From Escherichia coli (GTDB taxonomy: Bacteria > Pseudomonadota > Gammaproteobacteria > Enterobacterales > Enterobacteriaceae), in NCBI RefSeq assembly GCF_003334785.1, contig NZ_QOWV01000015.1: DNA of 64,000 nt; one strand, given 5' to 3'. The notes beneath the pieces were generated by a model. The model searched no databases and was not told where the DNA came from. It saw nothing but the letters and a program-made list of their open reading frames with translations. The position numbers were made by a program, and so were the translations under genes. Of this stretch, positions 63,804 to 64,000 are shown piece after piece; positions within the stretch are counted from its first letter, which is position 1, and every line of letters begins with the position of its first letter.

Positions 63804-63925
63804 ATGCTTCAAATCCCACAGAATTATATTCATACGCGCTCAACGCCTTTCTGGAATAAACAAACTGCACCTGCCGGAATATTCGAACGTCATCTTGATA
63901 AAGGAACGCGCCCGGGGGTTTACCC
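63804..63925 (+). pseudogene. yeaR: yeaR 5' fragment (DUF1971), interrupted after about 41 codons
   Basis: MLQIPQNYIHTRSTPFWNKQTAPAGIFERHLDKGTRPGVYP then the frame diverges into IS-like sequence and stops at 60 aa; intact YeaR is about 119 aa. Confidence 0.6.
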
Positions 63926-64000
63926 CATAAGCGCTAACTTAAGGGTTGAACCATCTGAAGAATGCGACGCCTCGGTGCCTCGTTAAGACGATGCCTCGCG
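63926..64000. mobile_element. Terminal inverted repeat and first ~75 bp of an IS186-like insertion sequence (runs off window)
   Basis: CATAAGCGCTAACTTAAGGGTTG matches my recollection of the IS186 terminal IR; it abuts GGGGGTTTACCCC, a GC-rich G-run/C-run site like those IS186 prefers. Confidence 0.55.

Follow-up and report, generated by a model that had tools for sequence, protein, structure and literature searches.

The element closest to the one described here is IS186 (IS186A/B/C of E. coli K-12; IS4 family). Our locus resembles it in the identity of the element end, in the 23-bp perfect inverted repeats and, as far as the full copy is known from relatives, in the 370-aa DDE transposase and the 10-bp GC-rich target duplication. 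SaiSree et al. 2001 is said to be the original paper for the IS186 consensus target. The target motif is GGGG(N6/N7)CCCC and, because the flanks of this motif are palindromic, the element inserts in either orientation (PMC5009759). Some variation is seen in practice, as 7 of 59 reconstructed IS186 sites were off the motif by one or two bases (PMC5009759). Other IS186 hotspots, namely fimA, menC and a GGGG(CCGCAA)CCCC site, are likewise sequence-directed, used in either orientation and struck repeatedly (PMC5009759), and PMC6307192 cites the lon promoter as a further hotspot.

Insertion of IS186 into yeaR has been reported in the K-12 strain PFM2, whereas the MG1655 reference is without it (PMC5009759). 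IS186 was also found in yeaR in many MG1655 lines that had evolved antibiotic resistance independently, in a study that lists yeaR PCR primers (PMC6307192). Both cases concern the same gene and the same element as the DNA analysed here, a stretch of 64,000 nucleotides that we call the window. However, the PFM2 and evolved MG1655 alleles are K-12 alleles, while the window is non-K-12 and lies near the genome of JKHS016. We infer that the PFM2 insertion site is the same as that of the window at the base level, and the K-12 derivatives Dam/Dcm and ET12567 carry exactly the junction of the window. The yeaR insertion is already known in K-12 derivatives and is widespread in natural isolates.

JKHS016, which comes from hospital wastewater in Japan, is the closest complete genome, being identical to the window over the last 25 kb, with 10 mismatched positions across the first 49.5 kb. 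Across the first 25 kb, none of the complete E. coli genomes in the collection matches the window perfectly, the best having roughly 3 mismatches there. The sequence-only reading of this DNA had taken the insertion in yeaR to be its only apparent departure from the K-12 layout. The gene order from znuC to yeaR is indeed as in K-12, and leuE and dmlR are the upstream neighbors of yeaR, but the same allele also occurs in some K-12 derivatives. The rest of the window offers a few observations of its own. Gathering-level Rfam matches at 20508-20652, 36141-36601 and 55650-55735 are all expected for the region; they comprise an overlapping pair of SraC/RyeA (minus strand) and SdsR/RyeB (plus strand), a cspA-type thermoregulator 5′ UTR upstream of yobF and a cold-shock gene that PGAP names cspE, and sroD. 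In K-12 Dam/Dcm and in JKHS016 alike, yeaV (~59119-60600, minus strand) carries the PGAP flag 'incomplete, missing N-terminus', apparently a quirk of start-codon choice or annotation and not a strain-specific lesion.

At the right end of the window, the best explanation is a complete and ordinary IS186 in yeaR, inserted at a recurrent site and cut by the window edge, to which we assign a probability of about 0.96. The features of the window that bear on this reading are as follows.

63707-63722, plus strand: NarL '7-2-7' site TAACCAATAAATGGTA of the yeaR promoter, an exact and single match in the window, intact and upstream of the insertion.
63804-63925, plus strand: 5′ fragment of yeaR, 40 full codons and 2 bases.
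63804-63986, plus strand: chimeric open reading frame of 60 aa, 41 from YeaR and 19 from IS186 DNA, with its stop inside the IS.
63916-63925, no strand: left copy of the target-site duplication GGGTTTACCC, 10 bp, the second copy lying past the window edge.
63926-63948, minus strand: 23-nt terminal inverted repeat of IS186, CATAAGCGCTAACTTAAGGGTTG, at the transposase-distal (right) end.
63926-64000, minus strand: first 75 nt of IS186, part of the non-coding right end, with the window edge inside the element.

The small gene yeaR, which nitrate and NO induce, starts with an ATG at 63804, and a GGAGGG ribosome-binding sequence is found 5′ of this start. According to the list of open reading frames and their translations, the frame that opens here reads MLQIPQNYIHTRSTPFWNKQTAPAGIFERHLDKGTRPGVYP and then ISANLRVEPSEECDASVPR, and ends at the stop at 63986. 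When the IS and one copy of the duplication were deleted in silico from the JKHS016 locus, an intact YeaR of 119 aa was restored, which we take to agree with the K-12 YeaR sequence, and yoaG was found to start just 3′ of it. Residues 1-41 of the chimeric frame are identical to the restored protein, in keeping with the earlier statement that the yeaR frame matches the known protein for about 41 codons and then switches. Comparison with an intact gene had been proposed as the way to locate the breakpoint, and the restored yeaR placed it after the second base of codon 41. Base 1 of the IS, a C, completes a synonymous Pro codon, and hence 41 native residues are retained. The junction had been located in the string GGGGGTTTACCCC, in which the G-run/C-run site is correct but the final C is already IS sequence (its base 1) and not part of the target, whose unoccupied form is GGGGGTTTACCCA. 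Continuation of yeaR in another frame was considered separately and ruled out, as the 75 nt past the junction are pure IS186 sequence. In the related genomes PGAP labels both yeaR fragments YeaR/DUF1971, and the full label of the 5′ stretch is 'DUF1971 domain-containing protein, incomplete, missing C-terminus'.

The 23-mer at the junction has one exact match in the 64 kb, compared with 0 expected from 100 dinucleotide-preserving shuffles. Its recognition as a terminal inverted repeat of the IS186 type proved correct, since the match is exact and agreement with the IS186 end extends over 75 of 75 nt. The same interval, 63926-64000, is 100% identical to the IS ends in K-12 Dam/Dcm (locus L001) and JKHS016 (locus L002). 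In L002 the window end corresponds to position 5000 and the transposase coding sequence occupies 5097-6209 on the minus strand. The stop codon of the transposase thus lies ~97 nt past the window end, and the window itself contains zero transposase codons. The visible end of IS186 is the transposase-distal one, and the transposase gene is antisense to yeaR.

Related genomes supply the remainder of the element. In yeaR of both Dam/Dcm and JKHS016 it measures 1339 bp and contains a single open reading frame on the strand opposite to yeaR. The inverted partner of the 23-mer closes the element at 1339 bp in the MG1655 reference copy as well as in the five yeaR loci from related genomes; among the six IS186 copies read base by base, five of which are in yeaR, five are 1339 bp long and one, which is frameshifted, is 1343 bp long. 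The Dam/Dcm copy is identical at 1339 of 1339 positions to the resident IS186 of MG1655 that adjoins nupC. Intact copies encode a 370-aa IS4-family DDE transposase, and that of JKHS016 (L002, 5097-6209, minus strand) reaches 133 bits with NCBIfam NF033592, whose cut-off is 115, and has a Pfam DDE_Tnp_1 (PF01609) match at E = 6e-26. PGAP names the protein 'IS4-like element IS421 family transposase', IS421 being a synonym or isoform of IS186.

An IS4-family transposase frame, a second inverted repeat and a short target duplication had all been anticipated beyond the junction by the sequence-only reading. All were found in the related genomes: a transposase of 370 aa above the NF033592 cut-off, a second repeat of 23 nt and a duplication of 10 bp. 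That reading had also named the results that would count against it, which were a downstream sequence lacking transposase and second repeat, a 23-mer that does not align with IS186, and a yeaR that continues in another frame. Since the window covers just the first 75 nt of the element, these were tested on the related genomes, and none of them was observed there.

In structure, the copies in yeaR show no differences from IS186, and the differences in sequence that were noted are position 408 in JKHS016 and the 1343-bp length in UMNK88. The JKHS016 copy has a T at IS position 408, where the K-12 and E. coli B copies have a C, and its transposase has a protein accession other than theirs; position 408 lies past the end of the window. 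The UMNK88 copy in yeaR (L006, 2561-3903) has 1343 bp as opposed to 1339 bp and a transposase that is annotated as frameshifted, and this copy may be immobile.

The target site could be defined from the duplication. In all five yeaR::IS186 loci that were read (L001, L002, L004, L005 and L006), GGGTTTACCC flanks both ends of the IS. The IS186 of MG1655 at nupC has the flanks GGGG-AATTAT-CCCC and the duplication GGAATTATCC, that is GG+N6+CC, so that the register of the duplication relative to the motif can be read from this copy. When the same register is applied to yeaR, GGGTTTACCC corresponds to the site GGGG(GTTTAC)CCAC. The empty yeaR target thus has one mismatch, located in the 3′ tetramer, relative to GGGG(N6)CCCC, and differs by this one base from the published canonical IS186 sites. 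The earlier description of the target as a G-run/C-run of the kind that IS186 favors was right in substance, with the qualification that the yeaR site is one base off the motif. A perfect G4/C4 target in yeaR was ruled out, as there is none in the window and the fourth C is a base of the IS. The canonical motif GGGG(N6-7)CCCC has no match anywhere in the 64-kb window.

These observations indicate how the allele arose. A complete IS186 has very probably entered codon 41 of yeaR through ordinary cut-and-paste DDE transposition, with the transposase making cuts staggered by 10 bp at GGGG(GTTTAC)CCAC and thereby generating the duplication GGGTTTACCC. Past position 64000, the source genome would then contain 1264 further bases of IS186 with the transposase frame on the minus strand, followed by CAACCCTTAAGTTAGCGCTTATG, by GGGTTTACCCACGCCTTTCC and the sequence that continues from it, and by yoaG. 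For a simple insertion, the second inverted repeat would be followed directly by GGGTTTACCCACGCC and its continuation.

We determined how common this allele is by searching 5426 complete E. coli genomes with junction-spanning queries, to which 5420 genomes gave any match. The counts were as follows.

Left junction as in the window: 255 genomes.
Corresponding right junction (second inverted repeat, GGGTTTACCC and the rest of yeaR): 255 genomes.
Same insertion point, IS186 reversed: 196 genomes.
Uninterrupted (empty) site: 4963 genomes.

Taken together, empty sites and sites occupied in either orientation cover 5414 of the 5420 matching genomes. IS186 occupies the yeaR site in 451 of the 5426 complete genomes (8.3%). 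The element as such is present in 2205 genomes and in 8501 places in total (median of 3 per carrier genome), so that the yeaR site is occupied in ~20% of the 2205 carriers and represents ~5% of all IS186 places.

The census also bears on whether the element is complete in the source genome, which has to be judged from relatives, the window holding 75 nt of it. It is conceivable that the IS186 end marks the breakpoint of an IS-mediated rearrangement (a deletion, an inversion or a truncated solo end) and that the 3′ part of yeaR and yoaG lie elsewhere. The far side of the element is outside the window, which leaves room for such an event, and IS elements are known to cause deletions and to take part in recombination in E. 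coli (PMC5009759). We nevertheless regard a rearrangement as very improbable, given that the left and right junctions were found in equal numbers (255 each), that empty and occupied sites cover all but a few of the matching genomes (5414 of 5420), and that JKHS016, the closest genome and one identical over the last 25 kb, carries the simple insertion. As the two junctions are equally frequent and nearly every genome is accounted for, we infer on strong grounds that the IS would be complete in the source genome as well.

An error of assembly deserves mention for a similar reason. Copies of IS elements are classic sites of mis-assembly, and IS186 is a multi-copy element (median 3 per carrier), so a contig mis-joined at a repeated IS186 could give the appearance of an insertion in a yeaR that is really intact. 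This is scarcely credible in the present case, since the same junction, with a proper 10-bp duplication, recurs in hundreds of independently finished genomes and the insertion has been reported both in the assembled genome of the PFM2 founder and in evolved MG1655 (PMC5009759; PMC6307192). A complete IS186 in yeaR thus remains our reading of the locus.

Five of the carrier loci were read base by base and are listed here with the orientation of the element.

L001, K-12 Dam/Dcm: orientation as in the window.
L002, JKHS016: orientation as in the window.
L004, K-12 mouse-gut isolate: opposite orientation.
L005, E. coli B: orientation as in the window.
L006, UMNK88: opposite orientation.

The insertion point is identical in all five. 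For K-12, JKHS016 and UMNK88 there are 0 mismatches over 600 bp on each side of the insertion, while the E. coli B flanks belong to another haplotype, 13 of the 600 bp upstream being mismatched. Within K-12 the element lies one way in Dam/Dcm and ET12567 and the other way in CV601 and in the mouse-gut isolates.

These comparisons concern the history of the allele and not its identity. The near-identical flanks in most of the listed carriers (0 mismatches per 600 bp on each side in K-12, JKHS016 and UMNK88) would be expected if the allele derived from one ancient insertion shared by descent, as opposed to a hotspot struck many times, and they imply that much of the 255 count could reflect clonal descent within related lineages. 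A single ancient insertion is nonetheless unlikely to account for the whole pattern. The element is found in both orientations at one base (255 versus 196 genomes), and K-12 itself is mixed, as MG1655 is without the insertion Dam/Dcm and ET12567 carry it one way round, and CV601 and the mouse-gut isolates have it the other way round. The different flank haplotype of E. coli B (13 mismatches in 600 bp) and the repeated gains in laboratory evolution (PMC6307192) point in the same direction. While part of the 255 and 196 carrier genomes must be related by descent, the yeaR site is a recurrent hotspot, both natural and in the laboratory, that is used in either orientation.

With regard to consequences, YeaR is very probably non-functional in such a genome because only 41 of its 119 residues remain. 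NsrR reportedly represses the yeaR promoter, a finding attributed to Lin, Bledsoe and Stewart 2007, a paper that PMC6307192 cites. The NarL site listed above was identified by its published sequence, with a position of −43.5 (PMC10853779). Judging from the sequence, yoaG, the second gene of the operon, would probably be silenced too, as ~1.35 kb of IS DNA would separate it from the NarL-activated promoter. It had been proposed earlier that the insertion inactivates yeaR and separates the promoter from whatever lies downstream. Inactivation is supported to the extent that it can be read from the sequence; the gene separated from the promoter is yoaG.

Transcription from the yeaR promoter that enters the IS would run antisense to the transposase gene. 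A terminator-like hairpin is located inside IS186, antisense to the transposase, at 5479-5498 of L002 (plus strand), where GCCGGAAAGGGAGCTCCGGC is followed by TTTTTTATTA; this is a consensus match only, which transcription from the yeaR promoter would meet in the orientation of the window. The IS of L002 contains two terminator-like hairpins, no more than shuffled sequence does. A promoter scan of the same IS found no outward promoter-like site, and a promoter and terminator scan of the window tail found nothing.

It has been considered whether yeaR::IS186 is favored in some conditions, for example under fluoroquinolone exposure, as suggested in PMC6307192, or through loss in the gut of the nitrosative-stress response that depends on yeaR-yoaG. 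We hold this to be distinctly improbable. If it were true, the near-consensus yeaR site would represent a retained mutational switch. The occupancy of 8.3%, in both orientations, is compatible with a favored allele and equally with a neutral hotspot combined with clonal descent.

For the window itself, the finding matters little past correct annotation, yeaR being a pseudogene here. The one element that is mildly new is the census, which places IS186, in one orientation or the other, at this near-consensus site (one mismatch) in 8.3% of complete genomes. In this strain, phenotypes of the yeaR-yoaG operon, which NarL and NsrR regulate, are not to be expected. The same allele segregates in K-12 laboratory stocks (PFM2, Dam/Dcm, ET12567, CV601 and mouse-gut-evolved lines) and recurs in evolution experiments, and yeaR::IS186 should be treated as a hotspot event and not automatically as an adaptive mutation.
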